A stretch of DNA of 64,000 nt from Candidatus Omnitrophota bacterium (GTDB lineage Bacteria > Omnitrophota > Gorgyraeia > Gygaellales > Profunditerraquicolaceae), in NCBI GenBank assembly GCA_030650425.1, contig JAUSED010000005.1, forward strand, positions 78,932 through 142,931. Reading direction: 5' to 3'. Made by a program: the position numbers and the translations under genes. The notes under the pieces were generated by a model that was not told the origin of the DNA, did not search any database, and was given only the letters and a program-made list of their open reading frames with translations. This document shows positions 48,001 through 64,000 of the stretch, one piece after another (positions within the stretch are counted from its first letter, which is position 1; every line of letters starts with the position of its first letter).

Positions 48001-51000
48001 TAGGCGCCGCCTCGCCCATAACTGCCGCAGGGATAATTAACCTATTCCTTTCCTCATCTCCGGTTTCTGAATTGAGGCAGTATCTTGAAAATAATAAGAA
48101 TCCAATGGTAGGGAAATTTTTGAGTTGGATAGATAATCGGGGAGAATCACAAATTAATACAATATGGGAGAGCCAGCGCCGATTAGCTGAAGAAATAGGG
48201 ATATCAGAAATGACTATTTCTAATTACCTGCGCAGGATTCAGGCATTATTGCAGTTAGAAAAAAAGCCGCTCATTAAGATAGAACTAAAAATAAAGAGAA
48301 GGACAATAGCGGATCAGATAGAGGAATGGGCTTTAAATAGGGAGCCCAGCCAAAAACTCAAAGAATGGGGAATAAAAGAATTAGCTGCCTTGTTTGGAAA
48401 AACTCCCCACAGCATAAGGCAGGCGCTTCCCGCGATTAATAAAAGATTAACTGAACGAAACGAAGAGGAAGTAAGAGCAAATAAAAAAGAAGAGTCAGCT
48501 GAAGGCTATAAAAAAATAGCCCCAGCAGATGGCTTAGAGTTGTTTATACGAGAGGTTTTTAGGAAGATGGGTAAAGATGAGCAGCGGGTCTTTAATTACG
48601 ACTTTGAGGGTGGTAATGATATATTTAAGGGAACAGGATTAACCCTGAAGCGAGTTGAGTCATTAATAAGAAGCAGTGTTGTCAAGATTTGTAATGCGTT
48701 TGGAACGCAAGACGAAAAGGCAGCTTATGAAAGATATCTGGATTTCAAGAAGCAATTGAATGCAAGCCACAATAAAGAAAGCTTAATAGAAGAATTTAGG
48801 GTTGGTGAGAGCGTTGAGAAAGAGGCAGAGGAAAGAGATGTAGATGATTCTGAAGCATATTCTCAGGTTCAAGATAATTCCATTGATGTAGAGAACCAAG
48901 AGGCCGCCAAGCATATAAAACGCCCATCCTCCTCGCCGATTCATAACAGTGAGCAAAACCCAGAGGAAGGCTTAAGGCGGATCTCTGGAAAGGCAGAGTT
49001 TACAGAAAAGATAAAACCATATCTTGAGGTGGGGGCAATGTATATTTTGTTTATAGCGGCTTGGATAGTTTTTGGCATTATAGGAAAAGTGCTGGATATT
49101 ATTAAGCCGTTTCTATCTAAGTTAATAGGATTCTTACAGCAAAAAACTTCAAGCAGAAGGAAAGATTCTAAGATACATAAACATATGGGAAAAGGGGATA
49201 TTTCTAAGTTAGGGAAAGAAAATGGTGCCGCTTCGCCGCTGACGCGAAATATAGAAAGAGCCAACGCAATATTTAACAGAGTTCTTGAGGCAGCCAGTAG
49301 GAATTCAAAAAGAAAGTATGCTATTAAGCTCTTCATTAAAGAAATAGACGCATACGGTAGGGCTTCTTTAAGCGGCAATTATATTACAATAAATCCAAAC
49401 CAGTTAGGTAATCCAGATTTTGAATTAGCTAAATTAATGGGCCATGAGATTACCCATATAACCTTGGGGCATATTTGGATTGTACGCATTGGATTCAGGG
49501 TCACAACCGCATTATTTTCAATCCTGTTTGCCGCAATGATAAGCGGGATTATTACTGAATTTGACGCGCTTCTTATTGCCGTGGTATTTTTAGGTACGGT
49601 GTTGATGTGTTACTTGGTTACTCAAAGCGAAGCCGATAAGAAAGGTAAGCAATATGCGATATTAGCCGGATTTGGAAATGATACAAAACCTTCGGCTTCT
49701 AAAAAAGCCAGTCATTCCGGCTCGCCGGTAGAAATCATTAGATATGATGAAGTCGATAAGAATGGGGTATTATTTAACCGTTTTCGGTTAATCTATGGAA
49801 CTAATAACCAGCCGCAAAAGCGAATTGTAGAGGTAAGGCAAAAAGGTTTTGAGCCGGTATCTATGTTGAATTATACCTCGCGTAAGATTCACGATACATT
49901 CCCATATGCAGCTGAAGGGCTCTCTCAAGAATTTAGCTGGCATGGCGAAAAAATGCTGGGTGATATGCCGCATACTACCACTCAAAGCGCGCTGTTAGCT
50001 TTAGAGAGGATTAATATTACAGGGAAAACCGTGATTGACGCTGGAACCGGTGATGGAGTATTAGCTATTATGATGGCAAAGCAAAAAAGTGAAGTTAAAG
50101 CTGCGGATTTTCCTTGGATGTTAGAGTTAGCCAAGGAGAACGCAAGATTAAATGGCGTCTATGATTCTATAGAATTTATCGCAGCTACTTTTCAAGATTT
50201 TGGACGAAATTACACAGGGCCGGTAGATATTTTGGTAACTAACATTGGGCGCATGGGAAGTTATCAGAGATACGAGTCTCTATCTAATTTATTCAAGCGA
50301 GCGCAAATTATTATTTTGGCCGGCAGTGAAATGAGGCCTTATGCTCCGTATGCGGATGTTAATCATCCATTTCATCCCTACGACGGGTATCCCTTCTTTA
50401 AAGGAGATAAGTTTATTCCTCTACTCAAAGTAATAGTCAGAACAAAATATTCAAGCGCTGAATGGGCGGCATTGGTTCTTGCCGCCGCCTCGCCGGTCAG
50501 TCAGTTAAATCAGAAAGGCTTAAATTGGAAAGAATTTTTAGGCAGGGTAAAAGAAGCGCGGGTGATTTTGGTAAAAAATGATCTTCATTCTCCCTCAGGC
50601 GAAGCTCCTTGGATATTATCACCAACTGAGCAAGATAAAAAGGTATTCGCAGGAAATTACAACAAAGTTACAGAATTATTAAGGAACCTTCGTATCCTCG
50701 AAGCCCTTGAATTAGATACACCGGATCCGCACAACGATGTATTAGATGATGAAGGGTTTTTAAAGCTGATTGGGGCATTTATGGCTGGCGCCTCTAGCCC
50801 ATTGCGAAACAAACCCGCCGCCTCGGCCGCAGGTATTCCTAATAAAATAATAACCAGAAAGAGATTCGAAGATTGCCTAAGAATAAAGAATTGGGTTAAT
50901 CTTAAAGGCGGGTATAAGAAAGTTTGGTATCCGGGTTCCGGTTCTGATGTGGCGTTGGCCCTGTATGCTACTAATGGAGATGAATTTACCCTTACAAATT

Positions 51001-54000
51001 ATACACTCTTTGGAGAAGCGGATGATTTTAGCAACTTTGAGGGTTGGGAGAGGGAATATCATTATCATTTAAGATGCACCCACAGTTGGCTTAGCGTTAA
51101 TTACTATAGATGGAATAGTATAAGCGCGCAGATTTTCTCTGAATTAGAAGCGATAGGGGTAAATTTTGATGATGTATTAAAGACAAGGATTAATCCTGCG
51201 AGATTTAGACTGGAATTTGATTGGCAGCATCCTTCTGAGAAGATAGCCAAAACAAGGATTATTGACTATATAACTCCGGGCTGCGACTTTTATACTCCGG
51301 AAAACAAGGCAGATATCATAATTATCAAGGCGTTAGATCAATTTCACATTAACCCGCAGGACATGCTTTCTTTCTTAAATCAAAATGGATTTATAGTTAG
51401 CGATATTTATCTGGAGATCCTAGGAATCAGGCCCGTTGCCTTGAAGCTCAGCCATAAATTTGGATACGCCCATAACTTGCCATTCGGAGAATTAGTTGGA
51501 TTAACTACGGGTACGGATGTATTTTTATACAGGAAAATTTCCGCAGCCACTATTTTTAATGGCCCCTCGCGGATAAGTTCACCTATTAATCGCCAAGGGC
51601 AGGCCCCTCAAGATGAAGGCCTTAATAAACAGATTGAGGCGTTAATCAAGATAGTAGGGACAGGGGACGTCAGGGCATCTATTAAGTTATTCGAGATAGC
51701 AGAAGCAGGAAATTTAGGCCGTGGCTTTGTTACTGAGATTTTTGCCCTTCTGAAAGACGAACGTAGGTCTGCGCGAACCGATGCCGCGGTAGTGCTGCAG
51801 GTTGCAGCCTGCAAAGACATTGAAACAATGCTTGAACTTATTGAGCGGACAATAAATGACGAATCGTTAGCGGATGAACGCTACGATACGCATGGCCGTA
51901 TGACTTGGCCTCAGCGCCTTACCGTAAACATCATTAATGAAAGAAAAGGCCAATACATTTTGGAATCTTTAGAATCATTAAGAGGTAATTCTTTACAAAA
52001 GGATATGGTTATAGATTTTATCTTGGATTATGGCAAGTATATAAACGGCTTCTTTAACTTTGCGATCTTGCTCCTCGATAATAAATTATTAAATGATAAA
52101 CAAATCAACAAGATTATCTATGATGTATTTGGCGCGCCTGTTTCACTAAGTAGAATTCGTAAGGCAGCCATTTTTAGTCAACCTCAAGAAATTCTTCCGA
52201 AAGAATTAGGCCTAAAGATACAGACAGATTCTAAAGTAATTATCCTGTCCGGATGCAATTATCCGTTACTAAGGACAGAGGCTCTGATAGAGGATTTAAG
52301 ACACACATACCACTTCGACAGCCGGGTTTCATTTACGGAATGGCCCGTAGAGGAAACGCCCTTTGGCTACGCATTGGATGCCTATAACTTTTTGAAAGAG
52401 CGCTCTCAAGAAATACCTTCGCTTGGAAAGATGCTGAGAGCGATGGAAAGTCGCTCAGGAGAGATTATCGAGGCTTATAAAGAGGAGCTTTATAAGCCAT
52501 ATCCGAATTGGTATTATCTATTAAAAGAGCTCAATGAGATTATGCATCAGGTCCCTTATGACGCAAAATTACTTTTAGGCATCCTTGATTCTTATGCGAG
52601 AGAGATTTTCCATGAAGCTAATTGGATTAAAACATCGCAAGAGAGCATTCCCGGCACCTATATTATATCTTTATATGGAGGGTTATCTGCGCATGACACA
52701 CCTTGGATTTGCGCGGGAGAGGATTTATCAAGCCTTTTAGGCCGGATATTAAAGGAAAATCAGATTGATTGGCGCGCGGAAGAAGACAAGAGCTTAGCAG
52801 GCCTTAGAAACTATGCATACATTGTATTGCCGCTTTCATTAGTAGGCAGCGGTAACGAGGATTTACTGAAGGCCATAATCGGCATATACTTTTTACCAGA
52901 GATCGGTTCTCTTCGCAAGCCAATGCATTCGCTAAACTTAGAGTATGTGATTTCCCACACTGATTCCTCCAGAAGATTTAGCATCGATTTAAAGAAAATC
53001 ATAGATTCTTTACTAAGTACCTTTCCCAAGAACCTTTCTTCGCCGATTACTCTTGCCTGCGGTAAACCGTTGCAGCTAAATCCCGCCGCCTCGCCGCTGG
53101 CTGATAAAAAAAATCAAGATGAATTCAGGATGTTTGAATTTATGGATTTGTTAAGCCAGGATTTAAATCAACATTCCGCTGAGTTAGAGAAAAATAGCCC
53201 TAAGGTTGCGGTGTTTTGTTCTGCCAGGATTAATTCCGGAAAATATTGGGAACTGGCAAAGGCCTTAGGGGCTTCGCTAGAATCTTCCGGTTATACTATA
53301 ATTACCGGAGCTGGCCCGGGTTTGATGGAGGCGGTTGGCGAGGGCGCAGGCCAAACTATTGGGCTGAATATTAATATGCCGAATAAACAAATTCCTAATT
53401 TTTACGTAAAGGAGTGTTTAGAATTTCACAATTTCTCAATAAGAAAGGCTATATTTATCAAATACGCTGATGCCTTTGTAATCATTCCCGGAGGATTAGG
53501 AACTTTAGATGAGCTTCTTGAGGCCTTAACCTTAAAAGACAGGGGATATATCGATGCCCCAATCATTTTATTAGATAAAGGATTTTATTCAGGTTTATTT
53601 GAATTTCTAGAGGGAGTCGAACAGGCTGGTTTTTTGAGAAAGCCCCTTAAAGAATTATGCGTCCTTGTTGATTCTGTAGATGAAGTTTTGCGATATCTTA
53701 AACTAAATAAGGCGCCTCTCAAGCAGGGGAAAAATAATATAGATATTAAACAGGTTTTGGATAATCTCAAGGAGTCATTGGCCGAACTGCAAGGCATAGA
53801 ATCAGCGGTTGGTATTCTGGGCTCGCATTCGTTTGGGAAAGACTCTTCCTCTTATAGGCAGGCATATAATTTAGCCAGGGGTTTTTCCAGAGGTGGCAGA
53901 AAAATACTTTATAGGGGCTGTCAGGGGATTACCGAAGCAGTTGACAAGGCCATTGAAGCAGAAAAAGGCGTGGGTATATCTTTTTGGGTCCCGGATTATG

Positions 54001-57000
54001 AAAAAATTCAGCCGGTTATAGGTAAACGATTGGTTTCTCTGCACAGGTTCGCGCAGAAGATTCTTTTGATAACGCATAGCAGGCTTGGGCTTATTTTCTT
54101 TGCCGGAGGAATTGGCACGCTCGATATATTATCCGATGCTTTATGTTTGATTCAAAATAAAAAGATACAGGCAATGCCTATTGTATTAGTGAATAGAGAG
54201 TTTTGGCAGCCTTTGGTTAGCTGGCTGGAAACTATTTTGAAATCAGGGGCAATATCCAAGGAGGATATTGAATTAGTTAATCTTGTTAGTACAAATGAAG
54301 AGATAATGAAGATTATCGCCGCATCTTCGGTTTTAGGCGAGCAAGCGCGGGATTCGAGCGAATATCGTTTAAGTTCGCCTGTGAACGAATCCTGCGTAGG
54401 CCAACCCTTAGACAGACCCTCTCAAATTAGTAATGTAGACACTTTACACAACTCATCGCCTGTCAAGCAATTAGGAAAGAAAATGCTTCTGCGGTTAGAT
54501 ACCGATAAAAAGTATTCGAGCTCTCCGGCAATAATAGAAGAGATAGCCGCGGCAATTACAGATTCGCTCAAGCTGACTGATTACTCTGGTTCGCCGTTGT
54601 TCTCCTATACTTTCTGTTTCCCTGCCACAATACGTGGCGGAAGCTCGTCTATGTCCGTTTCACCTGTAACTTATGTAGCCTTGGTGGTTTTATATTCATC
54701 TACCTCGTTTTTGATAACAGAAGGAGCAGGATTATTAGTAAACCAGCTTTTTCTAATTCCGCAAATTATTTGCGCTCCGCCAATAGTAAAATATGCAACT
54801 AAGCCCGTTTCCTCGCCGGTAGGGGCTGTTGGCTTCAGCTCGCCGGTGGAAAAAACAGTTGGAGCGACGGTGGTGACGCGAGGCGCCGCCTCGCCGCTTG
54901 GTGAATGGTCAAGTGATAATCTTAGGCAGCAACTTAAGCAGATTGAAGGGAATGTTTTGAATTTGCTGAAGAAATATTCTTTGCCAGAGTTTACGGATAT
55001 TGTTTTACATCCTGTCGCGTATCGTTCTTTAATCACGTGGTTAAACGCAGTCATCAAAAGCCGTGAAGATATACAAGATTTCAAAAAAATGCTGCAGAGA
55101 ATGGAAAAAGACTTTCTGGGGAGTATTTCCGGATTTGTTGCTATAATTTCTCCTGAAGAAAGAAAATCTTTAGTAGAATCTTTAGAATCCTTTAAGCGGA
55201 AGGCAAACGATAAGTTAAATGGTTTTATTACTGAAGCAAGAGAGCTGTATGGAAGGTTTTTGAAGTTGACGCAGCGGGATTTAGAAAATCGTTTTCCGGG
55301 AGAAACTACTCTTATTCTCTTACGGATAATGAGGACAGAGCCTATTAACCGTGAGTGGAATAGGGTTAGGGAAAATGAACATTTCACTTTAGATCCGTAT
55401 CATGGCTATACAAAATTAGACTGGAGAGTGATTATTGTTGCGCAAGTGCCTTTCGGGAGAATCAAAACAACCCCATGGGTATTGGAATCAAGTAAGACTG
55501 AAGAAGAATTTATTGTTTCCGGAGGCCTTCTAAACGTTGTCCAAACCTTTGATAAAAAAGATAAATGGATTAAGTGGAGAGAAGCAAACAAGGATTATTT
55601 TTATGCCAAGCTAAACTCGGCTTCTTCGCCAATCCTAGAAAATAATCAAAGTCTTCTCGTAGCTGGACGAAGTCCTATCAAATTTATTGGCTTAAGCTTG
55701 CCTGTGGAGGGAAAGCTTAAAGAGGTTTTCCTCTATGATAAGCTAGAAGAGAAACTGGTGCCGGTAGAGGCCAAAATCCTTGATACTCAGGACCCTGAAT
55801 TCAACGGTTTTCAGGATGCTGTAAGGGAGTGGTTAGCCTATTCTAGGGATGGTTATGCTATTGATAAAGCTAAAGACCCTCTAACCGGAGAAATTATTAC
55901 TATTCCTCATATCCGTCCTCTTGCCAGCCAAATTATCCAGAATGGAATCACTACTAAAGAGCACTTTATCGTTTTTAAGACAGCCGAGCAGGGAATTATT
56001 GCCTTTGTTCGCCTAAAGTTAAGGCCGCGCAGTATCCTTGGTGCCGGGTTTATTGTTTCTCCGGTTATCCGGCAAGTTAAACGTTACGATACGGAAACTC
56101 TCTTAATGGCCGTGATTCAGTCAATCATCGAATTTAGCCTTCAACAATTGGGCAGGGTAAGGGTGTGGGCGGATCCAGCTAACCGAAAGATGCTGGATTA
56201 TATTTTGCTATTTGGGCCGATAAGAAGACAAGGAAAATTCCTGGTAACGGACGAGGCCGCGCGAAGAATTCTGTGGTACATCCGTAAAAAGATGGCAGAT
56301 TATACCGCAACTTTAGCTGAGCCGGAAGAGAAAAAGTTGGATGGTTCTATTTCCGGCGCCTCCTCGCCGCTGGATTTAACGGTTGGCTTAAGTATTATCA
56401 TCTCCTATGCCTTATTAGTTCCGGTATTTGATTTATACCTGCGTAGGACTATTCAGCGTAAGACCATAGAAGAATTTAAGAAATTCCCATATCCTGTTTG
56501 GATTATGACATTCGCTTTTCTATTATTAGCATGGAAATTCCCGCCGTTGCACAATATTATTTTTTACCTCACCGCATTTTGTCCCGGCATTTTCCTTTCT
56601 TTGATAACGACACTTTCTTTGGCGACTATTTTTAGCCACCGAAAGACCAAGAAAATCATTATACCTTATTATTTATTGCGGGAAGAAGTGAATTATATGT
56701 GGAGACTATATGTCGTTAATATGAAGATTATTGAAGCCGTTGATATCTTTTTCTCAGCTGTGGCAGTCGCCTTCTTTAGTTATTATACCCATGCAACAGC
56801 TTATTTCATACTAGTAATGCTTCTAAAAAGAGCCGGAGTTCTATATCTAGCCCGAGGGCTCACTAAGGAATTTTCTTTAGAGCTTGAAGAGAGATACGAT
56901 GGGGGCAGGGACTTTATAAAAAAGTTTATCACAACAGAGCAGTTATTAGGAACAGATATTGCGCTTAGAGCAAAGGGGGAGCATAAGATAAGCTATAATT

Positions 57001-60000
57001 GCCCGCGGCCAATAGCTTTTGCGTTTAGTTATAAAGGATTAGTTCTGTATTTAGAGGAACCGTATCTTGCTTATTATTTATACCCTTGGTTTATGCCTGT
57101 AGTCAGAGTGATTCAAGAGATCTCCGGCTGGAGAAAGGCAAGAGACCGCGCGAAAGATTCTCTTCCGCAAAGCGAAGCAGCTTGCGGCGGATTAATTCCG
57201 CAGCGTATTGAGTATAGAGATGGGGCCGCCTTGCCGCCGGGATCGCATATCGTCGTCTACGAGGAGAATGGGAATGTAGACGTTGTATATAGCCCATTGT
57301 TTAACAAAGGGTTACAAAACAAATCTTTAGGATATCAAGATGGCCCCGCCGCCGGCACTGAGCCTAATCGAAGCGCCTCGCCGGTTTCAGGAGAGACAGA
57401 ATTATCTTCGGCTTCCGCATGCCTTAGCCCCGCTAAATCCCGCGATAGCCCTAAGGGGAATAAATTCTTAACCTTAACTTCTGCTTTTCTTATTTTTCTT
57501 ACCTCCTTCCATCTTTACCTTAGTCCTTTGCGGGCCTATGCTAACCTTAAGGTTAATCTAAGCGTAATCACGCCCCAAGCGTCACAAGAGCGCCAAGAAA
57601 CCGAAGAGCTTTATAATCAGGCAAGCAGGCATCTAAAGAATCAAAAATACCAAGAAGCGCTGGATCTGTATATAAAGTTAATTAAGCTAGCGCCCAATTA
57701 TATAGATGCCTACATTGACAGGGCCTATCTTTATATCCACCTTGCTCAAGAAGCAAAACAAACAGGTAAAGATACAAAAGGCCTTAGGAAGAACAGAGAC
57801 AATGCAATGTTGGATTTAAAGAAGGCTGAGGCGCTTACTTTAAAGGCCATAAAAGAGAAATACTTTACTAAAGAAGAAGGCAATTTGGTATTTGCCTCAA
57901 TCTATAATCACTACGGATTATTTTATTATCACCTTGAAGGTGATTACAAGAAAGCAGTTAGTTATTTTGAGCAGGCCATAGGCTTAGAGCCGGATAACCC
58001 GATAAATCATAATGATTTAGGGGGAGCCTATTTTAAGTTAGGTAAATACGGCCTTGCCGAAGAGGCATATACTAAGGCAATTGATAAAGCAAAAGCCGCC
58101 AAAGACAATTACGCGGGTTCCCGCATTTACGCAAACCGCGCATTCTTAAGGTTTAAACTCGATAGATATAAGGCGGCAAAGCAAGACATACAGGAAGCCA
58201 CTAGTTTAAATCCCAATTTAAAGAATGATAATAATATCCAAAATTTATTAAAGGAGATTGAATTGAAACTTCAAGAGCGAGAAGGGGTTATTGATTTGTC
58301 TTATCTAAAACTCAATAACTCCAATATCCTTCAGCAGGCTTCCTCGCCGGTTTCGGAGAATAGAAGGGGACAGTTCTATCGTAACTGTTCATCGGCTATG
58401 GAGATAGACAGAGACGGTCTGGAGGATTCTAAGGAAGCGCTTATCGCGCCTTTGCAACATCCCTTAGGCAGGCATTTATATATAGGTACTGATGAGGAGC
58501 GAGACTTATCTAAATGCAGGCAATTGTTATTTGCAGCTTGTCTTGAACTTAGGATATGGAAGAAGCGATATTATTTTGAGCAAGTTGAAAACAGGATATG
58601 CAAGGATCCTTCGTTTCGGACAAAAATAGGCCTTATTGTCTTATTGCGCGATATCCTGCTTAATTATGACGCTTCTAACGTAACGGTTGCTTTTGTAGAC
58701 AGGCTTGAGGGTATTCCGGAAGAACTGATATCGTTCCTTTTAGATGACGAGATCTTATCAGCTTATTTGAATTATCAAGATGAACTTCGAAAATATAAAT
58801 ACATGGATGATAGGGCTATCGAAACTGGCTTTTTCCCATTTTATTATCTATGGTCAGCGTATAAACGCGGGGAAATGCGTGATGCCAAAGAACTCAAAGA
58901 GAGAGTTGTTAGCATCCTTAAGGGTTTTGGCTATGATAAAGCATTCTTCAAGCTCCTAAATGACTTAGCGCATAAGAAAAAGGCGGATTTTAGCCTTGAT
59001 AGCGGCGCAGACGAATTGCGGGTTTTCTTTAGGGCCTTATCCCGTAAAGATATCGTTGAGATTTTTAGACAGACCTTATCAACTCAGATTCTGCCTTCTG
59101 TTAAAAGGCATAGAGCTTCATCTGTAATACAAGGTACCGCCTCGCCGCTGAAGGAAATTGGATCAGAAACCCAAAGAGAAGCAGCCAGGGGAATGATGGT
59201 CATTGAATTGCCCGTGGATGCCGACTTGGGCGAGATCATAAATCACAAAATTGTATATGTTAAGAATGACGGGAATATTAGCACGATTAATGAAGGAAAT
59301 ACAATTAAACTACTACATCCTGATGGGCTAGAATGGAATCTTAGCTGCAAGGTAAGGGATTATCTAAGAGCTACATTTAGCTTAGATTACTCTCTCCTAG
59401 GATTAAAACCTCATCCCTCAACACTTGGAGCGATATGGGCAATGGAAAGGTATCCTACCAATAATCAGCAAGTCCTTGACGCGGGTTGCGGTGAAGGGGT
59501 TTTCACGATTTTGGCGGCTAATTTAGGAGCGAGTAAGGTTATAGGCGTTGATTTAAAAGATTTCATTATTGGACTCGCAAGAAGAAATGCTGAATTAAAT
59601 CGCTTAACTCATATTATTGAATATCACAAACAGGATTTCACAAAACCGTTACAACTATCTGTAAATAACATCAAGTTTGACAAGATCATAACTAATATAC
59701 CCTGTGGTTATACTTATATGGTTCCATCTTTATTGAGGCTTTATCCGGAAGTCAAAACCTTTATTTGGGCAGGTGATTACGTTCATCAAGAAGGCCGCGA
59801 GTATATCGTGGAGGGATCAGAAGAATATATTAGGGAGATTCAGGCATTAGGATTTCGATTCGTAGAAAAATTGATTATTCCTCAAAGAGGTTTGTTTTAT
59901 CCAGAAATTATTATTTGGAAGTGGGTGACATATATCTTAAAGCGGGAAATTAACGAAGCAGGCGCCGCCTCGCCGCTGGGGAAAAATGATCAAAATATCC

Positions 60001-63000
60001 TTATCCCTGAAATTATTTCTGAAGCTATTGCAGAAGAAGTTCAAAGAATGCCGGCTTGGGAACTTTTATCTGTTTTAGATCTCAAAAAGGCCAAGCTACT
60101 TTTTACTAAAAGCGGTCCTAGAGAGCTTACTGTCCACAAGATTAAAGTGCCAAAGCTTGTAAATAAGTATAAAGCGCCAGAGGGTTTAAGTATTCTGCCG
60201 TATGAACTTTTTGATACGACAGAATTTGAACTTTTATACAATAAAAAAGGATACCTTATCGCGATTTATCCGGTTCTCCCAAACGGATTCCTGATTAAAT
60301 CTGGCGAACGACTCCCTCACTATTTTGATTTTAGTGAATATTATTTTAAAATTCCGGAATTCGGTGATCCGAAAATGATTGAAAAATGGGATGCCTTCGT
60401 AAAGGATGTCGGCAGAGATCGGGAAGCAATACAGGCTTATGAGGATTTAATCGGGATAAAGGGTAAGCTTGAAAGGCGCCCGCGTTGGGTACCTTACATC
60501 TACGCAAATCTTGATTATCGGGATAATTTTCCATTTGCTCGGGCTTTTTACATTGAGATGTTTAGCCGTTTGATTAAAAAAGATGAAATCTCGAATAAAA
60601 TCTCTAGAGACATAATCCGGTCTATTCTTCCTGTTTTTCCGACTGTTTACCATCCGGGATCCCATTTATTGGATGATTGGAAATACATTTTAGCTGTTAC
60701 CAGGCGTCTTGATATCCAAAAAGACCATGATATTTTGGTTGTTGGCCCGGGGAATGGCCTTGACACTTGGTTTGTTTCTCGGCAAACAAGGCGGAAAATT
60801 TATGTTGCGGGAATTAATCCTTTGGAAGTTGCCAATACCAGGGCTGTCGCAAAAATTGCCGGGTTTAAGATAGAAGCCAGGATTTACGACAACATTATTT
60901 CTAAAGACGGCGTGACTGTCTTTAATAAGAGATTTGATCGGATTATCTGGAATATGCCCACATATTATCCGGTTGCCCCTAGAATCCGGGAAAGCCTTGA
61001 AGAATGGGAAGATAATGATTACGACGGTATGATCTTAAGGCGTTTTGCCGGAGGCCTTCCATTACTTCTTAAACCAAATGGAATTGCTTTGGTTTGGAAT
61101 TCCGCTGCCGGAAAACTTTTAGATGAGGTTGAAGAAATCTTAAAAGCAAGAGGAGCGCTAGATGTGGCAGTCGAAAAATACCCGGGTATGACGTATTTAG
61201 CCAATATCGAAATGGGCACGGAAACCATTCCTACCGCGCTTTACTTTATCCGCAAGGGAAAAAATCCGGATGCAGCAAGCGCCTATTGTGTCAGTTCGCC
61301 GCTGAAAGAAATAGTTGGAGCGACGGTGGTGACGCGAGGCGCCGCCTCGCCGGTTTCGGGGGGAATATTCCTAACTATATTATGGCCTAAAGACGGTAAT
61401 ATCTTTAATGCGCTCAAAATCTCTGTCATTAGTAGCGATATTCCTAATCTTGCGGATTCTCATAAGAGCAAGATTGAGGGCATCGTTTGTCAACAAGCCG
61501 GATTGCTTAATGATCAATTGGGCAGTATCAAAGACACTTTCATTCAGCGGCCATATCTTGATGTTCAGTTTAGGGATACTATTTATGGCTATATGACACT
61601 TACTGAGTTCTTTGGTTATTTGCGGATGGGATTTAAGGTAGGAGACAGCTTTATGGGAGGATATATTGTAGATTTCTATGGTTTCGGCAATCATAAGACG
61701 ATGCAGAAGCTCAGCGACTACAATAACAGAAGTATAAGCAATTATTTCTTTTTGCTCGCAGCGCTGAAGAAAATTGGTGGCGTTATCATTGATGCCCAGA
61801 AAGTGGTATATAAATATATTGGAGTCAACGAAGATTTTTTTACCGGATTTGACTTTGGCGAGCATCTAATTATTCAAAGGGCTAAAGTTAGGGGATTCAG
61901 CAAGTATCTTAGCAATGCCGCGTTTAATATGTATGATAGCGCGAGTAACTTCAGTGGTGGTTTTAGGCAACTCAAACCTTATTTCTATCCTCTGATGTTC
62001 GGCAAGGGGAACCTTGGAGAGCGGGCGAATGACCCCTCGTTCATAAATTCCCAGTATAGTCTTAGTCATATTTTTTCTCCTTCTAAAAAAGTATACCACG
62101 CTCTTAACGGGGTTGTCAAGAATATTAGTCTTGCCGCCTCGCCGATAAGGATCTCTCCATTTCTCAGTGACATATTTAGAATGTTTCATATGTTTGAGGT
62201 AAATGAATCTATTTTAAGCGAAGACGGGAAAGAGGCGCAGCAGTGGGTTAAGAAAATCATTGGCACAATGCAGAGGCCCCCTGTCGGCCTTATTACAAAT
62301 AATAATGCAGAAAAGCTCATAGCGCTTATGCCTAATCCACGGAAAATATCTCTCGGTGGTTGGTTTGATCTTAGCAGCCTCAATTTTGGAAGCGATGATG
62401 AATTTGGCTTTGGTTGTTTAAGGCCTTGCCCGCATTGTTCAGAAGGGAATACAAGAGCGCGGGTAACAAATCGCACGCTGCCGCCTGCAATAAAGCTTAT
62501 TGAAGAGATGCGCAAGGAAGGCCAGCAAGATACGTTAAGAGGCCTGAAAACTTATCCCGGAAGGTTTCTGATCCAAGGGTGGAATAACACCGACCTTTTC
62601 TATTGGTGTGATCCTTTCTTTAGAGTCTATTTAGACGGCCTTATTGAATTTATCGCGCGTCATTACAAAGATAGAAAATTCCGCCTGCGGATAGCCACAA
62701 TCGGCCCAAACATAGATGACTGGCGCGCATTTATCGTAGCAAAGAGTATTGACAATCTGGTGCTTCAATATCCTGAGTTAAGAAATAATATATTTAGTCT
62801 ATCCTTGCATTTGGCCTTATTTAGCACCAGAGGGTTTGATTATAATACTATCTCTGCTTTGTATGAGCGCAAGATAAATCCACAGCGGCTGGCTAAGGTT
62901 ATAGATAACTATGTGGCCCGCTACGCAGCTATTATTGGCGTTCTCAAGAATACGCTAAGAACGGTCAAAGTATTTCTGTCAAATGAAAGCAGTGAATTTG

Positions 63001-64000
63001 ACTCTCTTACGCTTACTGTATTAGATAGGGTCTTAGAGAGGGTCAATATCAGTGGTGGCTTAAAACAGAAGATTATTGATGGAGTAGCTGCAAGAGAACT
63101 AAACAGTGATGTAATGACCCCGTACGGCTTTACTGTAAAAAGCGCTAACATTACGCCATCCGGCCACCGGGGGTTTGATTTTGTAATTGGGTTATTCAAG
63201 CTTGCAGGCAGATGGAAAGAAGCTGAACGTTACAAGAGGGCTCAAGCAGTAATGAACTTCGCTCCATACCGCAGTAATTATGTCCCAGAAGATGGGTACC
63301 CTCAAACCATAATTTTACCGGGAGAAAGAATTATTGTTCAAAACGAGAAAAGAGAAATGTTTAAATTACCTCTGCAACAACTCGATCCTGATGCTGAATT
63401 TCTTGCCCGCTACGGACTACCTGACAAAAAATCTATAACTAAATATTTATCTTCAAGCCCATTGGCCGAAGTCGCCGCCTCGCCGGTGATAAACAGGCAA
63501 TCCATAACTTATGAAGAATTTGCCGATGATAAACTAGTCAGATTATTACAAAGCGCATCAGAAGAAGAAGTATGGGAGGGCATAATTCAATCCTTAGAAA
63601 AGCCAAGTCTCACTAAGAAAGAGGTGTCGGTAATTTTTGAGAATATTGTAAAGATATGTTATATGGAATATGGATATTACAGGTTCTCCGGTTTTTACTC
63701 TAAGGAGAAATTCCGCGAATTTTTTAAGAGGCTATTAGCATTTAAAGAGGAAATAACCGAAAGGATATTTGTAAATGAAGAAATTAAAATTCTATTCAGG
63801 AAAAGAATTGAAATTCTGAACAAAGTTTTAGATCTATCTGCGGCCGTTCCTTATGAGGTAATTCACTACCAAAGAGAGGATAGGATCATTCCTAAAGACA
63901 CCGATGGTTATTCTTTACCTTTAGCATTTTTAAGAATAATAGCTTTGACTATTTACGATACGTTGAAGGTTAATTTGACAAATAAGGTGGTTGCTATGCA
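1..64000 (+). CDS. Internal fragment of one giant stop-free ORF (21,332 codons in the window, truncated at both edges), encoding a mosaic multi-module protein
   Basis: In the phase with codons at 3,6,9..., my by-eye translation pass from 3 to 63998 met no stop (selected stretches were checked codon by codon). The ORF track lists only three short plus-strand ORFs, all in other phases, as expected if this frame never closes in the window. Recognisable protein domains occur in this phase along the whole length. Confidence 0.9.
3..269 (+). other. C-terminal part of a CheA-type histidine-kinase ATPase (HATPase_c) domain
   Basis: The translation VKDDGKGINKEKIIKRAEELGFI..QQILNLIFLPEVSEAKDSREGTGIGLATIKKSIEAVCGQINVKSKTGQGTQFSFSLPC matches the DDGxGI, ILNLIF-PGFS, GxGxG and G-GT-F blocks of CheA-like kinases. 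Confidence 0.75.
1095..1745 (+). other. Alpha-amylase-family (GH13-like) C-terminal fragment, region IV onward only
   Basis: LLFAENHDERPALDAF resembles GH13 conserved region IV (FxxNHDxxR). It is followed by AAVIILSTEAHMLIPLAQIYG and a beta-sandwich-like tail (GDTIAVINYSDGREKVRIDL). The N-terminal catalytic regions are absent, and the module starts directly after the junction at about 1056. Confidence 0.35.
2990..3990 (+). other. RelA/SpoT homologue module (HD hydrolase-like plus (p)ppGpp synthetase-like domains)
   Basis: The HD part reads GKSFKSGETYFHHALAAAKTLL..AAFLHKL. The synthetase part reads AEIKSRVKSAYGMFEKISSGRR..ALKDILGTHII..KGYEAIHIDVEI, which matches the RelA_SpoT pattern (RxKS.S...K, D..G.RI, GY.S.H). 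I checked the translation codon by codon at 3660-3790. Confidence 0.75.
4890..5300 (+). other. CheR-like SAM-dependent methyltransferase domain
   Basis: IKVLCAEGVSHFKDGPKFFTASRLAILLRE..FDIYVVDTDMSALEQAAYGFYD..FDLITYFFKEYVL parallels the CheR pattern (RIWSAGCSTGEEPYS..ATDID..AL..A..G.Y..FDLIFCRNVLIYF). Confidence 0.55.
5610..6030 (+). other. Second HD (SpoT-type metal-dependent phosphohydrolase) domain
   Basis: AYELARQIHRGKKRDNGEPYLMHPIAVVDIF..ALIDHDVFEE matches the SpoT/HD signature (H.GQ.R..GEPY..HP..VA ... HD..ED). Confidence 0.6.
7293..7437. mobile_element. MITE-like 145-bp palindromic element inserted in-frame, flanked by an 8-bp direct repeat CACGATTC
   Basis: The terminal inverted repeats are GTAATGCGTCGGTCAATGGGGG (7293-) and CCCCCGTTCACTGACGCATTAC (-7437). 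The inner hairpin is GTCATTGCGAGCGAACGAAGTGAGCGAAGCAATCTC / GAGATTGCTTCGTCGCTGCGCTCCTCGCAATGAC. An identical CACGATTC occurs at 7285-7292 and at 7438-7445. Confidence 0.8.
8109..8228. mobile_element. Second MITE-like palindromic element (~120 bp) inserted in-frame, flanked by the direct repeat TTATTG
   Basis: ACTGTTGCGAAATG (8111-8124) is the perfect reverse complement of CATTTCGCAACAGT (8212-8225). The inner hairpin is CGTCATCCTGAGCGAAGCGAAGGATCTCG / CGAGATTCTTCGGCCTTCGGCCTCAGAATGACG. TTATTG occurs at 8103-8108 and at 8229-8234. Confidence 0.75.
8880..9060 (+). other. HEAT/PBS-lyase-like repeats
   Basis: LLLRIAKDSNHLIRKDLAVSLRQLLAHDIHAEILNELINDADREVREEALV fits the HEAT_2 pattern (d.d..vR..a..aL). 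Confidence 0.4.
9636..9708 (+). other. Internal signal-peptide / TM-like hydrophobic segment
   Basis: KLLAAFVFLAYLAASIFSPIVSRA|DSVQ lies about 35 codons downstream of the junction ISSSPI (about 9531). Confidence 0.5.
10760..11440 (+). other. Paralogous module copy A (unknown function; H-x-H motif), followed by a junction and a GerE HTH array
   Basis: LKEHYTEIIVALAMNFPSRIEP...IRYLQEMAGNFELQFCVVSPK..PLLIFSKEL...RFVPFASAVAHTQAYL...LEISWF aligns by eye with copy B at 31235-31985. Confidence 0.6.
11446..12345 (+). other. Three GerE/LuxR-type HTH units
   Basis: The three units read WTDRELEIWRLWAKGVDREAIGKALNEGERFIKRVISKIITKFNI, LSEREKKILWLFIAGYNPKAIALTLSLPEGILLSDILFAMKQKLRV, and LAPSELKLLQKILEGKKMKQI.... 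Each follows the LTxRExxVL..a.G...keIA pattern. Confidence 0.55.
15451..15537 (+). other. Internal signal-peptide-like segment with an AxA-type site
   Basis: GASPIRVMAAGIALITYLHLVLFTPVFA|AEQALKA lies directly after the junction NSSPLAEG (about 15414). Confidence 0.55.
16555..17420 (+). other. TPR repeat block
   Basis: Repeated W/Y..G..Y...G....A...Y..A motifs, for example LWIVVGNYYQNIGDAENAIRAYKEAVEV, WQLAGEIYYKLGDLNQARDAFAIS, and VRLGDIYYQQGDFKQAAKFYADALKSD. Confidence 0.7.
20540..21035 (+). other. GGDEF diguanylate-cyclase domain (GGEEF active site intact)
   Basis: [78 protein letters not shown]. I verified this codon by codon over 20520-20820. Confidence 0.9.
21525..22070 (+). other. RsuA/RluB-family pseudouridine-synthase-like domain, catalytic Asp motif lost
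   Basis: TEGLIILTNNPHLKERLQNNIISQPERYRVSIEGKVSEEDL...ILEIYFSRRGEREILVLFKNFGYSVKNITRTQIGLISPQDLKPGSYRRLKWNEI parallels T.GLLLLTNDG.L...L.HP.....K.Y.V.V.G......L ... L.EGRNRQVRRMF...G..V..L.R..IG...L.DL.PG..R.L. The position of GRLD reads TPAQA. Confidence 0.6.
22262..22900 (+). other. Protein-kinase-like fold module
   Basis: EGGFKRVYKIVLRS..FFVKVVKA (Gly-loop/Lys-like) and FADSKPENVIIHHKSQIGYRGTLIDMDNI (catalytic-loop D.KPEN and DFG-like DMD). Confidence 0.45.
22990..23200 (+). other. ThiS/MoaD-like beta-grasp module (tentative)
   Basis: IKIAINDKEVLVPERTTLLEILNDCYVDINTMDVELNGNLL resembles ThiS (I.vNG......g.Tl..LL........vAVe.NG.iv). There is no C-terminal GG. Confidence 0.3.
24790..25235 (+). 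other. TPR repeat block
   Basis: ANLLNDFGAICLDQGRYSLARILFEVGL.., HFQLGYVSYLLGEFNLAFAYFQTAKRLG, and GFNLVSICKELGDFDNALKEFQEMMQ. Confidence 0.6.
27500..27620 (+). other. HExxH zinc-metallopeptidase-like motif region
   Basis: VRIIIHEYVHYYSFYSPIMQSESFAEVFAE contains HEYVH with a downstream Glu. The assignment rests on the motif only. Confidence 0.3.
29190..29960 (+). other. Sigma-70-family-like module (region 2 and region 4 HTH)
   Basis: Region 2-like: IIRFNMGLIKKIIASYKV...LEDAAIFGAKIAALKYHPERGVKFMTFAWNVIKHEINKIL, compared with nlrLV..iA.ky...DL.QEG..GL..A...fd...g.kFsTYA.wwIr. Region 4-like: KDLFREVVCLE..DTADQFGFSIVAKQRGIKRQTVTKAYYLVLATLR. I verified this codon by codon at 29220-29460. Confidence 0.55.
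30232..31005 (+). other. Low-molecular-weight phosphotyrosine phosphatase / ArsC-like module
   Basis: IKVVFLCNGNRWRSAAMYLW carries the CX5R(S/T) P-loop (C-NGNRW-R-S). A DP-containing loop (ADVLDPDKKEI) lies downstream. Confidence 0.55.
31235..31985 (+). other. Paralogous module copy B, followed by a junction and an XRE HTH array
   Basis: LKEDYLDSLIKIIMAFPSNIDP...VRNIQELAGDFELQFTVIFPK..PLVVFSREL...RFVPFAFSVGHTHGLA...IELAWF aligns with copy A at 10760-11440. Confidence 0.6.
31990..33080 (+). other. Array of about seven tandem XRE/Cro-C1-type HTH units
   Basis: LKQTRRAMDLTQEELAERL.., LRESLGYTPAKLAKVIGYTEVDILHWENAEAWIP, LRQIREKMGLSQKELVNRLG.., LRKDLDYTKESLGRKVGYSRTSVAKWEKGLQNVP, LREFLGYRAEKLARELG..ILRWEEGKEWIP, LRQIRKEVMNLLQKEFGEKVGYSQNISIYLREKG, and INEELGLNITDLISLL... 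Confidence 0.7.
33630..34200 (+). repeat. Three tandem ~64-aa (~190 bp) repeats of unknown function
   Basis: Each unit contains (K/R)KY(R)KI(Y)RA..L...(E)WGFL(N/D)W.SAVKA.G..P. Examples are LRKYRKIRRAFLFLREKGFLSDWNSAVKATGGQP, IKDKYRKIYRAYLLYGIEWGFLNWASAVKACGAKP, and IKKRYPQLFISFIFCQEEWGYLDWSSAVRKTGNQP. Confidence 0.7.
35340..35900 (+). other. TPR-like repeat block
   Basis: AEQLLNDGQYAEAIKLFKQVV, AVDLFEQRNYGKAKGVWKKVL, and AKAYFISGKEHYLRGNYRRAINYFRKVLDV. Confidence 0.55.
36050..36660 (+). other. Second sigma-70-like module (weak region 2; region 4-like HTH)
   Basis: EIVDTHLWLVKLAAIRYLRN.. and AVRQVVTLAFQGLSMEFITRRTELNEKEINQYLKQGGQEIQSLAGL. The C-terminus is paralogous to 33370-33500 (RKVLYLALNHEDMDNIIRLTGLTQEEIDRHLIEGGEKIQKISGL). 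Confidence 0.4.
38400..38760 (+). other. GNAT acetyltransferase-like module
   Basis: AFITAFVLGSLIRHNGYGIKIFRTAIKALKDRKYTSLFLIT resembles GNAT motif A (V.p..rg.GiG..L.......a...g...i.L). Confidence 0.45.
38865..38876 (+). repeat. Junction 12-mer GCCGCCTCGCCG (Ala-Ala-Ser-Pro), perfect copy
   Basis: Exact match, codon-aligned (start divisible by 3). Context: GPAASPVLGK. Confidence 0.95.
38945..39065 (+). other. Transmembrane segment
   Basis: FLVLKVVVVGIIAAGVILVAIAYLFSFIYRFFYFFL. Confidence 0.6.
39822..40165 (+). other. TPR repeat block
   Basis: EVNNLFKQGRFREAVGKLRELLS, ALHMLGSAFIGLKKPYTETMFCLDSALRL, and LGLGLTYNKLGLPDKALGCFEKIIEG. Confidence 0.55.
40975..41530 (+). other. Polytopic membrane module (about 5 hydrophobic helices)
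   Basis: WLSIFPAALFWAGYYLF, VIILASIALIGLTTIVFPSL, FLFSGIYFFSMIIFSALCSVFIL, and FKAFLVFMGAFFISDIVAMF. Confidence 0.6.
41823..41834 (+). repeat. Junction 12-mer, perfect copy
   Basis: Exact match, codon-aligned. Context: NPAASPLAEE. Confidence 0.95.
43555..44340 (+). other. Radical SAM domain
   Basis: ITSKCNLQCAPCIAQ has the CX3CX2C motif at 43590-43613. It is followed by WFVGGEPSLYG (the GGEP motif) and IDTNGTF. Confidence 0.7.
45420..45900 (+). other. HEAT-like repeats
   Basis: IIQQIGGKRAARKLANIFNERDMSWQVKILDMVGTM, AVRNFNPEIVNEAVCGLRNLV, and DAVKLLTNL... Confidence 0.35.
46280..46990 (+). other. Calcineurin-like / PPP-family metallophosphoesterase domain
   Basis: VLVIPDIHCQ (DxH), IQIGDVISRGPE (GDxxDRG-like), LLGSHELL (GNHE-like), VVHAGV, and VGHSP. 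The motifs occur in the canonical order. Confidence 0.7.
49250..49660 (+). other. M48 (HtpX/Ste24-like) zinc peptidase module with following TM helices
   Basis: DAYGRASLSGNYITINPNQLGNPDFELAKLMGHEITHITLGH resembles NAfa.G...I.i..gL...l...El.aVlaHE.gHi...H. It is followed by IGFRVTTALFSILFAAMISGII and LLIAVVFLGTVLMCYLV. Confidence 0.65.
49950..50330 (+). other. PrmA-like class I SAM methyltransferase domain
   Basis: HTTTQSALLALERINITGKTVIDAGTGDGVLAIMMAK..AADF..LELAKENARLNGV..VDILVTNI. Confidence 0.6.
50484..50495 (+). repeat. Junction 12-mer, perfect copy
   Basis: Exact match, codon-aligned. Context: LAAASPVSQL. Confidence 0.95.
53085..53096 (+). repeat. Junction 12-mer, perfect copy
   Basis: Exact match, codon-aligned. 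Context: NPAASPLADK. Confidence 0.95.
53202..53700 (+). other. LOG / TIGR00730-family (Rossmann, PGGxGTxxE) domain, copy 1
   Basis: KVAVFCSAR..GYTIITGAGPGLMEAVGEGA..FVIIPGGLGTLDELLEALTL. The PGGLGTLDE motif was verified codon by codon at 53487-53513. Confidence 0.8.
53800..54300 (+). other. LOG-family-like domain, copy 2 (more divergent)
   Basis: AVGILGSHSF..ILYRGCQGITEAVDKAIE..LIFFAGGIGTLDILSDALCLIQ. Confidence 0.55.
54835..54896 (+). repeat. 62-bp double-junction repeat, copy A (SSPVEKTVGATVVTRGAASP)
   Basis: The 40-bp core AGTTGGAGCGACGGTGGTGACGCGAGGCGCCGCCTCGCCG (54857-54896) is identical to 61313-61352. The 22 bp upstream are similar, with several mismatches. Confidence 0.9.
54885..54896 (+). 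repeat. Junction 12-mer, perfect copy
   Basis: Exact match, codon-aligned. Context: RGAASPLGEW. Confidence 0.95.
55980..56230 (+). other. GNAT-like module
   Basis: GIIAFVRLKLRP..GAGFIVSPVIRQVKRYDTETLLMAVIQSIIEFSLQQLGRVRVWADPANRKMLDYILLFG. Confidence 0.35.
56380..56870 (+). other. Polytopic membrane module (about 4 helices)
   Basis: TVGLSIIISYALLVPVFDLYL, VWIMTFAFLLLAWKF, IIFYLTAFCPGIFLSLITTLSLATIF, and IFFSAVAVAFFSYYTHATAYFILVMLL. The module starts right after the junction GASSPL (about 56364). Confidence 0.6.
57456..58220 (+). other. Signal-peptide-like segment followed by a TPR block (resembles a stand-alone secreted TPR protein)
   Basis: KGNKFLTLTSAFLIFLTSFHLYLSPLRAYA|NLK is followed by YNQASRHLKNQKYQEALDLYIKLIKLAPNYIDAYIDRAYLY, YNHYGLFYYHLEGDYKKAVSYFEQAIGLEPDN, and NDLGGAYFKLGKYGLAEEAYTKAI. 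Confidence 0.6.
59400..59900 (+). other. PrmA-like class I SAM methyltransferase domain
   Basis: HPSTLGAIWAMERY..QQVLDAGCGEGVFTILAANLGASKVIGVDL..ARRNAELNRL..FDKIITNIP. Confidence 0.65.
59964..59975 (+). repeat. Junction 12-mer, perfect copy
   Basis: Exact match, codon-aligned. Context: AGAASPLGKN. Confidence 0.95.
60690..61230 (+). other. Class I SAM methyltransferase-like domain
   Basis: HDILVVGPGNGLDTWFVS..KIYVAGINPLEVANTRAVAKIAG..FDRIIWNMPTYY (an NPPY-like motif) ..LKPNGIALVW. Confidence 0.5.
61291..61352 (+). repeat. 62-bp double-junction repeat, copy B (SSPLKEIVGATVVTRGAASP)
   Basis: The 40-bp core at 61313-61352 is identical to 54857-54896. It lies immediately upstream of the antisense TA cassette. 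Confidence 0.9.
61341..61352 (+). repeat. Junction 12-mer, perfect copy (left border of the TA cassette)
   Basis: Exact match, codon-aligned. Context: RGAASPVSGG. Confidence 0.95.
61380..61865 (-). CDS. vapC: PIN-domain ribonuclease toxin (VapC-like), antisense to and nested in the giant ORF
   Basis: This is the 161-aa ORF in the track. The four PIN acidic positions occur in canonical context: IFVDSNIFIY, VVAELLHRL, LLTNDALNLALM, and ATNDRDFERI. Its ATG (61863-61865) abuts the TAG stop of the upstream small gene (61866-61868), a typical TA operon layout. Confidence 0.85.
   Translation of the reverse strand: MLAKVKSGKKIFVDSNIFIYHFLGINDNATNFLQRCEQKEIIAYTSVIVVAELLHRLMIAETIEIYNISSHKAVSYLKSHPQITKELSKCHIAINSIPKLNIKIWPLNESVFDTAQLIIKQSGLLTNDALNLALMRIRKIRNIATNDRDFERIKDITVFRP
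61866..62069 (-). CDS. Small antitoxin (AF2212/DUF104-like), 67 aa from the internal ATG
   Basis: MTKTILGIYERGVIRPLSKVPLAEHQRIEIRFELP matches the ..aiYenGvlkPlepl.LpEg.rv.i pattern of PIN-associated antitoxins. An AGGAG SD lies 7 nt upstream of the ATG at 62067-62069. The track ORF (107 aa) over-extends 5' across the promoter. Confidence 0.7.
   Translation of the reverse strand: MTKTILGIYERGVIRPLSKVPLAEHQRIEIRFELPKTTTEVTRAIIHIKRGIAKILAESPNFSPLNN
62077..62119 (-). promoter_or_regulatory. Sigma-70-type promoter plus Shine-Dalgarno for the antisense TA operon
   Basis: The minus strand reads TTGACA (62119-62114), an 18-nt spacer ending in TGG (extended -10 TGn), TATACT (62095-62090), TTTTTAGA, AGGAG (62081-62077), AAAAAAT, then ATG. 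Confidence 0.65.
62133..62144 (+). repeat. Junction 12-mer, perfect copy (right border of the TA cassette)
   Basis: Exact match, codon-aligned. Context: SLAASPIRIS. Confidence 0.95.
62400..63200 (+). other. Possible second radical-SAM-like module
   Basis: FGFGCLRPCPHCSEGN carries CX3CX2C at 62415-62438. No other motif is confidently recognised. Confidence 0.3.
63474..63485 (+). repeat. Junction 12-mer, perfect copy
   Basis: Exact match, codon-aligned. Context: EVAASPVINR. Confidence 0.95.

Follow-up and report, generated by a model that had tools for sequence, protein, structure and literature searches.

The 64,000-nt stretch of DNA analysed here (the window; contig JAUSED010000005.1 of a Candidatus Omnitrophota bacterium) is taken up from end to end by a single open reading frame (ORF) on the plus strand, and a VapBC-like toxin-antitoxin (TA) cassette lies wholly inside this giant frame on the opposite strand (Table 1). 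At a GC content of 41%, the plus frame that starts at base 3 contains no stop codon over all 64,000 nt, whereas the other two plus frames contain 1702 and 2021. The cassette consists of a vapB-like antitoxin gene and, second, a vapC-like toxin gene, and the two abut directly, the TAG of the former being followed by the ATG of the latter. Positions given without a locus label are those within the window, and the related loci that were fetched for comparison are labelled L001, L002 and so on.

Table 1. Features of the giant ORF and of the TA cassette embedded in it.
Feature	Position	Strand	Remarks
Giant open reading frame (outer or host gene)	3..64000	+	>21,332 codons; runs past both window ends
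65-nt repeat copy	61291..61355	+	91% identical to 54835-54899; ends at the left junction 12-mer
Left junction 12-mer GCCGCCTCGCCG	61341..61352	+	AASP in the giant frame; arm of a 12-bp direct repeat
Spacer, 27 nt	61353..61379		Between junction and vapC stop codon; open in the giant frame
vapC-like PIN-domain toxin gene	61380..61865	-	161 aa plus TAA stop, which reads Leu (TTA) in the giant frame
vapB-like AF2212-like (DUF104) antitoxin gene	61866..62069	-	67 aa plus TAG stop, which reads Leu (CTA) in the giant frame
Shine-Dalgarno AGGAG	62077..62081	-	7 nt upstream of the vapB ATG; within '...FSPS...' of the giant frame
Sigma-70-type promoter	62090..62119	-	TTGACA, 18-nt spacer, TG-n-TATACT (extended -10); 11/12 consensus positions; tool-scored prediction
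Right junction 12-mer GCCGCCTCGCCG	62133..62144	+	AASP in the giant frame; second direct-repeat arm, 792 nt (264 codons) from the left arm

The antitoxin matches the Pfam family AF2212-like (PF01954) with an E-value of 1.3e-8 and 35.6 bits (cut-off 21.6), and the toxin matches the PIN family (PF01850) with an E-value of 3.2e-15 and 57.2 bits (cut-off 23.6). The original prediction, made from the sequence and its ORFs, had described a DUF104-type antitoxin and a PIN toxin with four acidic positions; the profile searches agree on both families, the coordinates and lengths it gave are exact, and the four residues (D14, E52, D128 and D147) are conserved in the homologues. Full-length homologues of the PIN protein number 44, at 29–75% identity. 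No variation is seen at D14 and D128 across 42 homologues, in which E52 and D147 are at least 90% conserved, and all four are invariant across six embedded copies. An AlphaFold2 model of the toxin, built on the homologue alignment, has a pLDDT of 95.9 and a pTM of 0.89, and its top Foldseek matches in the PDB are the VapC toxins 3zvk, 5ecw and 5wzf (probability 1.00, TM ~0.6–0.7), which come from VapBC complexes of Rickettsia, Shigella and Mycobacterium. The toxin falls far under the cut-offs of the NCBIfam VapC equivalog models (NF047959, 20.4 bits against 80; TIGR00305, 16.6 bits against 29.15), and we therefore assign it to a distant PIN subfamily and call the pair VapBC-like rather than canonical VapC. 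The pairing of an AF2212-like protein with a PIN protein is conserved in L001, L003, L005, L134 and L135, and free-standing operons of this kind are found in TA islands of methanogens, Methanoperedens, Desulfobacterales and others; viral contigs yielded no relative of the cassette. Judged by Pfam, the homologues and the AlphaFold model, the pair in the window is a real type II TA operon of the VapBC-like kind, with a toxin activity that is predicted.

Since 61380 is a multiple of 3, the TA genes on the minus strand share their codon boundaries with the giant frame; the alignment of the two had been claimed beforehand and is exact. With the two strands in this register (register 0), only TTA, CTA and TCA codons in the inner genes would stop the host frame. 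Our recount of the toxin gene gave the same numbers as the original prediction: its 16 Leu codons are three TTG, six CTT, three CTC and four CTG, and its 11 Ser codons are seven TCC, three AGT and one TCT. The antitoxin gene, with six Leu and three Ser codons, is equally free of TTA, CTA and TCA, so that over both genes TTA or CTA is used in 0 of 22 Leu codons and TCA in 0 of 14 Ser codons. In the giant ORF, TTA and CTA together make up 42% of Leu codons and TCA makes up 14.6% of Ser codons. At this host usage, the analytic probability of an open antisense frame is 6.7e-7, and 200,000 synonymous resamplings left the frame open at a rate of 0.025 for vapB and 7.5e-5 for vapC (product ~2e-6), both values in keeping with the rough figure of 1e-5 or less that had been put forward. 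Across the 780-nt insert between the junctions (61353–62132), the three plus frames contain 0, 9 and 33 stops, the zero belonging to the giant frame, which was thus rightly said to stay open through the cassette.

Recurrence was scanned with one genome per species, and short metagenomic contigs were added. This comparison uncovered the same antisense cassette inside a fully open frame in 11 further loci (12 counting the window), with one copy in each locus as in the 64-kb window. Six of the loci have the cassette antisense and in register within a frame that is open over the whole fetched 13.6–20.5 kb, and the matched gene is free of TTA, CTA and TCA codons in all of them; they come from Omnitrophica GWA2_41_15 (L006), the Omnitrophota single amplified genome (SAG) AM-311-K22 (L008), an Omnitrophota metagenome-assembled genome (MAG; L038) and three assemblies labelled Planctomycetales or Planctomycetia (L007, L009 and L039). 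Sense-strand ELFV dehydrogenase, methyltransferase and M50 peptidase domains are carried by the giant frames of L008 and L009. In the remaining loci (L001, L126, L134, L135 and L136) the antisense frame is open along the entire contig, each of only ~1 kb. Both genes are intact in L006 to L009, at 53–59% identity to the window. In L038 (9998–10420) and L039 (9498–9638), vapC is truncated after ~62 and ~45 codons, respectively, while vapB and the giant frame are intact. These truncations represent the usual toxin-first decay of TA modules, brought about through changes that preserve the host frame.

Free-standing relatives are spelled differently. In 37 free-standing homologues, vapC contains a median of 6 stops in the antisense register (range 0–12), and one homologue has none, even though many of them are similar in GC content (36–54%). 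By comparison, all nine full-length embedded copies have zero antisense stops (9/9; Fisher p = 9e-9). Every copy with readable context and intact flanks sits inside a long open antisense frame.

In a neighbour-joining tree (without bootstrap), the embedded copies fall into one clade, together with several short-contig sequences, and the free-standing genes of archaea and bacteria fall outside it. Blastp comparisons of the giant frames between loci give matches only across the cassette, and the flanks are unrelated, from which it follows that the cassette has been placed in different positions or genes; an orthologous cassette position shared by all species was rejected because the flanks are non-homologous. 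In a codon alignment of vapBC from six embedded copies, the TA frame has pS values of 0.71–0.87, at which synonymous sites are saturated, and pN values of 0.20–0.33, with a dN/dS of 0.11–0.15 where computable, indicating purifying selection on the TA proteins.

Taken together, these observations suggest that the cassette probably belongs to a TA lineage adapted to living inside giant ORFs, nested antisense and codon for codon. Its stop-free spelling is probably an inherited property of the whole cassette clade, which occupies non-homologous positions in different giant genes. The original prediction that the cassette had been recoded, or selected, to keep the giant ORF intact therefore holds in part: the frame is kept open by selection, and the spelling was probably not acquired in this gene. 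The genetic code itself permits the arrangement. Antisense TA genes retain their own stop codons, which appear in the host frame as the Leu or Ser codons TTA, CTA or TCA, and since TTA, CTA and TCA all have synonyms as inner codons, an open host frame demands no change in the TA proteins. A canonical -35 box, -10 box, Shine-Dalgarno sequence or ATG likewise has no stop in its reverse complement. With an insertion in the sense orientation, on the other hand, the host ORF would terminate at the stop codons of the TA genes, which explains why all embedded copies are antisense.

The expression signals upstream of vapB are the ground for a different account, in which the cassette is a regulatory device. 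A strong, autoregulated promoter would fire head-on into the giant gene, and once the antitoxin breaks down under stress, de-repressed antisense transcription, together with the VapC RNase, would throttle a very costly host gene, the TA genes being retained for control of the host gene and not for addiction or stabilisation. The window promoter is near consensus, with an extended -10, and is directed against the giant gene. Promoter-like motifs of the form TTGACx-N16-18-TAtAcT can also be read by eye upstream of vapB in the other embedded loci, the window copy being the only one scored by a tool. Of the ten loci inspected for a GGAG-type motif upstream of vapB, seven have a clear AGGAG, GGAGG or GGAGA, L006 and L008 have only AGAGG, and none is evident in L039. 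That cassettes are under purifying selection in several lineages also suits a regulator. However, the unrelated positions in different giant genes fit a selfish element better than a tuned regulator, and the toxin has been lost in L038 and L039 without loss of the giant frame. We regard the regulatory account as unlikely, although a live alternative.

The cassette might also be a neutral passenger in decay, accidentally inserted, non-functional and tolerated since this copy happened to have no antisense stops. The truncated toxins of L038 and L039 show that decay does occur. A decaying passenger is difficult to reconcile, however, with a TA-frame dN/dS of ~0.1–0.15 in six lineages, with (near-)invariant catalytic residues, or with promoter-like and Shine-Dalgarno motifs that are kept in the embedded loci. 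Synonymous sites have reached saturation without a single antisense stop appearing in any lineage, so that the avoidance of stops must be upheld by continuing selection. We give the neutral account very little credence.

Slightly less credible still is true dual coding, in which the giant-frame peptide across the cassette is a functional domain and both strands encode selected proteins. The frame is open, and the giant-frame peptides across the cassette are 26–39% identical between loci, yet similarity of this order is expected from the antisense translation of a conserved gene. In the same codon alignment, the giant frame has pS about equal to pN and a dN/dS of 0.7–1.3, which contrasts with the low pN of the TA frame. 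The peptide has no Pfam match, and a search against 1.84 billion representatives returned four short fragments only and no giant proteins. In a scan of the sense-versus-antisense codon log-likelihood, which is weakly discriminating, the cassette region has the lowest score in the window (z -3.6). Given conserved TA proteins and a giant-frame dN/dS near 1, the giant-frame peptide is best seen as a passenger whose sole visible constraint is the absence of stops, in line with the earlier suggestion that it is a read-through spacer. The possibility that the minus-strand ORFs are shadow ORFs, or that the frame is open by chance or through assembly chimerism, draws on the fact that real genes often have long antisense ORFs in register with them, and is effectively refuted by the free-standing archaeal and bacterial homologues of both proteins, the high-confidence VapC fold of the model, a chance probability of ~1e-6 in the window, and the repetition of the arrangement in 11 other independently fetched loci.

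If the cassette is an adapted TA lineage, as we favour, the boundaries in the window bear on how it came to its place. Perfect 12-mers had been reported to bracket it, 792 nt apart, and their coordinates are exact. The window contains ten perfect and nine one-mismatch copies of the 12-mer (19 in total), where shuffled sequence gives an expectation of 0.17. Every copy lies on the plus strand and in the giant frame, in which it reads AASP. The 65-nt direct repeat (54835–54899 and 61291–61355) encodes ...SSP(V/L)..VGATVVTRGAASP, and its two copies diverge completely immediately past the 3′-end of the 12-mer. The end of this repeat at the left 12-mer marks a recombination breakpoint there, in agreement with the earlier proposal that the module was captured at a junction site as an inverted cassette; in L001, the closest relative, the cassette likewise stands between direct repeats of the junction motif, though its context is unrelated. 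A search for repeats reported no inverted repeats at the cassette ends. The 27-nt spacer downstream of vapC folds no better than shuffled sequences as a 3′ hairpin (z -1.2), and a terminator scan of the window found no intrinsic terminator after vapC.

Direct repeats also flank the cassette in other loci: to the 12 bp of the window may be added 16 bp in L001, where the repeat is a variant form of the junction motif, 15 bp in L006, 37 + 33 bp in L008 and 42 bp in L009, and their spacing is always a multiple of 3. The 12-mer family itself was found only in the window, in L001 (at both cassette flanks) and in L039, and the junction 12-mer was for this reason rejected as a universal insertion site. 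In L008, a direct repeat of ~100 nt flanks the cassette (9611–9720 and 10514–10630) and encodes, in the giant frame, a hydrophobic, transmembrane-like segment (ILP.GLLA..GW.LALMIAVLIG.MIIKKILRQEGA). Downstream of vapC in L006 (~5925–6030), the giant frame reads through '...cattgcgaggaa...', presumably a REP-like repeat of the kind common in groundwater metagenomes, to judge by eye. It may be another non-protein element that is tolerated in frame.

The giant ORF itself seems to be divided into gene-sized units. Its sense-frame Pfam domains include a histidine-kinase HATPase_c, HD_4, GerE (LuxR helix-turn-helix, HTH), HTH_3/31 (XRE) and TPR, as well as GNAT, Radical_SAM, Peptidase_M48, LOG/Lysine_decarbox and a PrmA-type methyltransferase. 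This chain of domains usual in stand-alone cytoplasmic proteins suggests a mosaic that grew by whole-gene fusion. Each of seven Pfam domain blocks is confined to one inter-junction interval (7/7), and the TA cassette occupies one such interval. Motifs of the form [AS]SP[VLI], to which the AASP junction belongs, occur 62 times in the giant protein against 1.9 expected (~30-fold enriched), and may represent a module-boundary or processing motif with conservation at the nucleotide level.

Examples of this motif are found at 38865, 41823, 50484, 53085, 54885, 59964, 61341, 62133 and 63474. The Ser-Pro dipeptides of the giant protein are spelled TCGCCG in 36 of 133 cases, TCG and CCG both being minority codons. 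Elsewhere, the giant frames of L006 (18 [AS]SP[VLI] motifs against 0.6 expected) and L039 (13 against 0.8) show the same enrichment, and those of L007–L009 and L038 lack the motif. Several XRE-type HTH domains and Aca2/YdiL are grouped at ~32.1–32.9 kb in the giant frame.

The giant-frame spacer peptide had no match in a word-indexed set of 5.8 billion sequences, and a 731-aa flank of the giant protein had no database matches; together with the search of representatives described above, this makes it seem that giant proteins are absent from those libraries. No Rfam family was found within 59–64 kb of the window.

The VapBC-like pair is not the only TA pair embedded in giant frames. We compared the antisense ORFs of the window and of six loci with Pfam, 110 ORFs of 80 aa or more in all, and the only families detected were TA families (PIN, AF2212-like, DUF433 and DUF5615/PIN_10). 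An antisense pair of a DUF433 (antitoxin-like) gene and a DUF5615/PIN_10 gene adjoins vapBC in L006 (4257–4848) and L007 (11426–12017). The giant frame is open through this pair even though DUF5615 lies in a different register (+1), and the TA frame of the pair has pS values of 0.82–0.86 and a pN of 0.22, again indicating purifying selection. In the free-standing archaeal loci L003 (2572–4145) and L005 (297–2652), DUF433-DUF5615 and AF2212-PIN pairs are neighbours in the same order as in L006, which hints that the two-pair block may have been captured as a unit. The other long antisense ORFs of the window (39053–39532, 45410–45922 and 54671–55387) had no credible Pfam match, and no second antisense-coded candidate stood out from the weakly discriminating codon log-likelihood scan of the window.

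These features can be drawn together in a mechanism that is conditional at several steps. The cassette lineage would be pre-adapted by its stop-free spelling and would relocate in frame by recombination between short repeats, which in the window would be the AASP 12-mer between gene-sized modules. The giant protein would then carry a junk spacer of ~260 aa between two modules, translated through. The TA pair, as a selfish addiction module, would become 'entangled' with its host: the giant ORF would be broken by imprecise loss of the cassette, by frameshifts and by many nonsense changes within it, and deletions that remove the cassette would release the toxin, so that the TA genes and the giant gene might stabilise each other. 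Mutual stabilisation is the least supported step and is proposed tentatively, and protection of the giant gene from deletion, for which the argument is one of analogy with the TA cassettes of integrons, is plausible. In its widest form, the proposal is that giant Omnitrophota genes grow partly by accretion and shuffling of in-frame cassettes at junctions, and that a stop-free TA lineage colonises them, moves between them and secures both itself and the giant gene around it against loss. We offer this as a possibility, with the odds somewhat against it.

Several observations weigh against the favoured account of an adapted TA lineage. The cassette neither contains nor adjoins a recombinase or mobility gene, and 12 bp is short for RecA-dependent recombination, which bears on relocation in particular. 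Outside the window, L001 is the only locus whose cassette has the junction 12-mer on both sides, L006 to L009 having other repeats or none, and the flanking repeats may partly reflect the repeat-richness of giant genes. The giant frames of L038 and L039 are open despite a truncated toxin, so a giant gene can be independent of an intact toxin. A further case is L002, a low-coverage contig (ENA ERZ5996431; 957 nt, 1.3x), whose cassette groups with the embedded clade and whose TA genes contain no antisense stop. The cassette adjoins a PCMT gene fragment, with three antisense stops ~180 nt beyond vapC, and so the confinement of the clade to giant frames is not absolute. L002 may represent a copy that has escaped, the beginning of an ORF or a mis-assembly.

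Annotation pipelines usually discard extensive antisense overlap in bacteria, and what few cases have gained acceptance concern short, overprinted genes. Because a gene caller will output the giant ORF or the TA genes but never both, cassettes such as the one described here are systematically missed. The antisense, in-frame nesting of a TA operon in a giant gene is under selection, and as a way for two genes to share DNA it appears to be undescribed. The literature on Omnitrophota giant genes that we examined makes no mention of antisense genes, PIN domains or embedded TA modules, and wider text searches of the literature returned no natural precedent, only synthetic overlapping-gene designs. 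The evidence is clear and repeated that the synonymous codons of the inner genes are here under selection purely for an open outer frame, and the case is a clean natural instance of DNA shared through insertion rather than overprinting. The tolerance of junk spacers of ~260 residues by giant ORFs would bear on the origin and functional fraction of proteins of >20,000 aa, and a TA lineage specialised for a genomic niche so far overlooked could be tested for a connection with the stability of genes that are very large and costly. If a stop-free TA lineage does colonise giant genes, it would represent a new niche for selfish elements.

The VapBC modules, type II TA systems made up of a PIN toxin and an upstream antitoxin, are the obvious point of comparison, and pairs of AF2212-like and PIN proteins are common in archaea. 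The embedded cassette shares with them the order of antitoxin and toxin, the abutting genes, the acidic residues of the PIN domain, a VapC-like predicted fold and a promoter of its own. Known modules, however, are intergenic or located on mobile elements, whereas the embedded lineage is nested in a protein-coding gene, on the other strand, and makes no use at all of TTA, CTA and TCA.

In the superintegrons of Vibrio, TA cassettes reportedly stabilise the chromosomal cassette array. The likeness lies in a small TA unit that stands among gene-sized units split by a recurring short sequence and that is possibly protective against deletion. Unlike in integrons, the recurring site is here an in-frame 12-mer (AASP), the array is one continuous ORF, and the cassette has its own promoter. 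No integrase domain was found in the scanned parts of the window, the whole of which is one ORF, although an integrase may lie outside the window. An integron model was rejected given the absence of an attC-like structure, the boundaries being 12-bp direct repeats and the 3′ fold having a z of -1.2.

Rickettsia palindromic elements are said to lie within ORFs and to be ~100–150 bp long, palindromic and without genes. The cassette resembles these mobile insertions in that it leaves the host frame intact and would be translated as an additional peptide segment, and it shows what is expected of an in-frame insertion, namely an open frame and 12-bp direct repeats 792 nt apart. It differs in its size (an insert of ~780 bp), in carrying two genes on the other strand, and in being present as a single copy per locus.

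Antisense embedded overlapping genes of E. coli, for example laoB, are thought to be overprinted, short and young (PMC5810103; 10.1101/2020.11.18.388249). Like them, the TA genes are protein-coding and lie wholly inside another gene on the opposite strand. The embedded TA genes, however, are old and arrived by insertion, and it is locally the outer frame that is unconstrained. An overprinted antisense gene was rejected on account of dozens of free-standing archaeal and bacterial homologues.

Further counterparts are the synthetic overlapping-gene designs. These place an inner toxin gene in an alternate frame within a tolerant outer region, with a recoded open frame and linked fates, all of which recalls the cassette. 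Those designs are engineered, whereas the embedded cassette is natural. It is antisense, comprises a complete two-gene operon with a promoter, and is conserved across many environmental lineages. It provides a natural precedent for the synthetic gene entanglement used in biocontainment and, if the colonising lineage is real, a natural counterpart of synthetic sequence entanglement.

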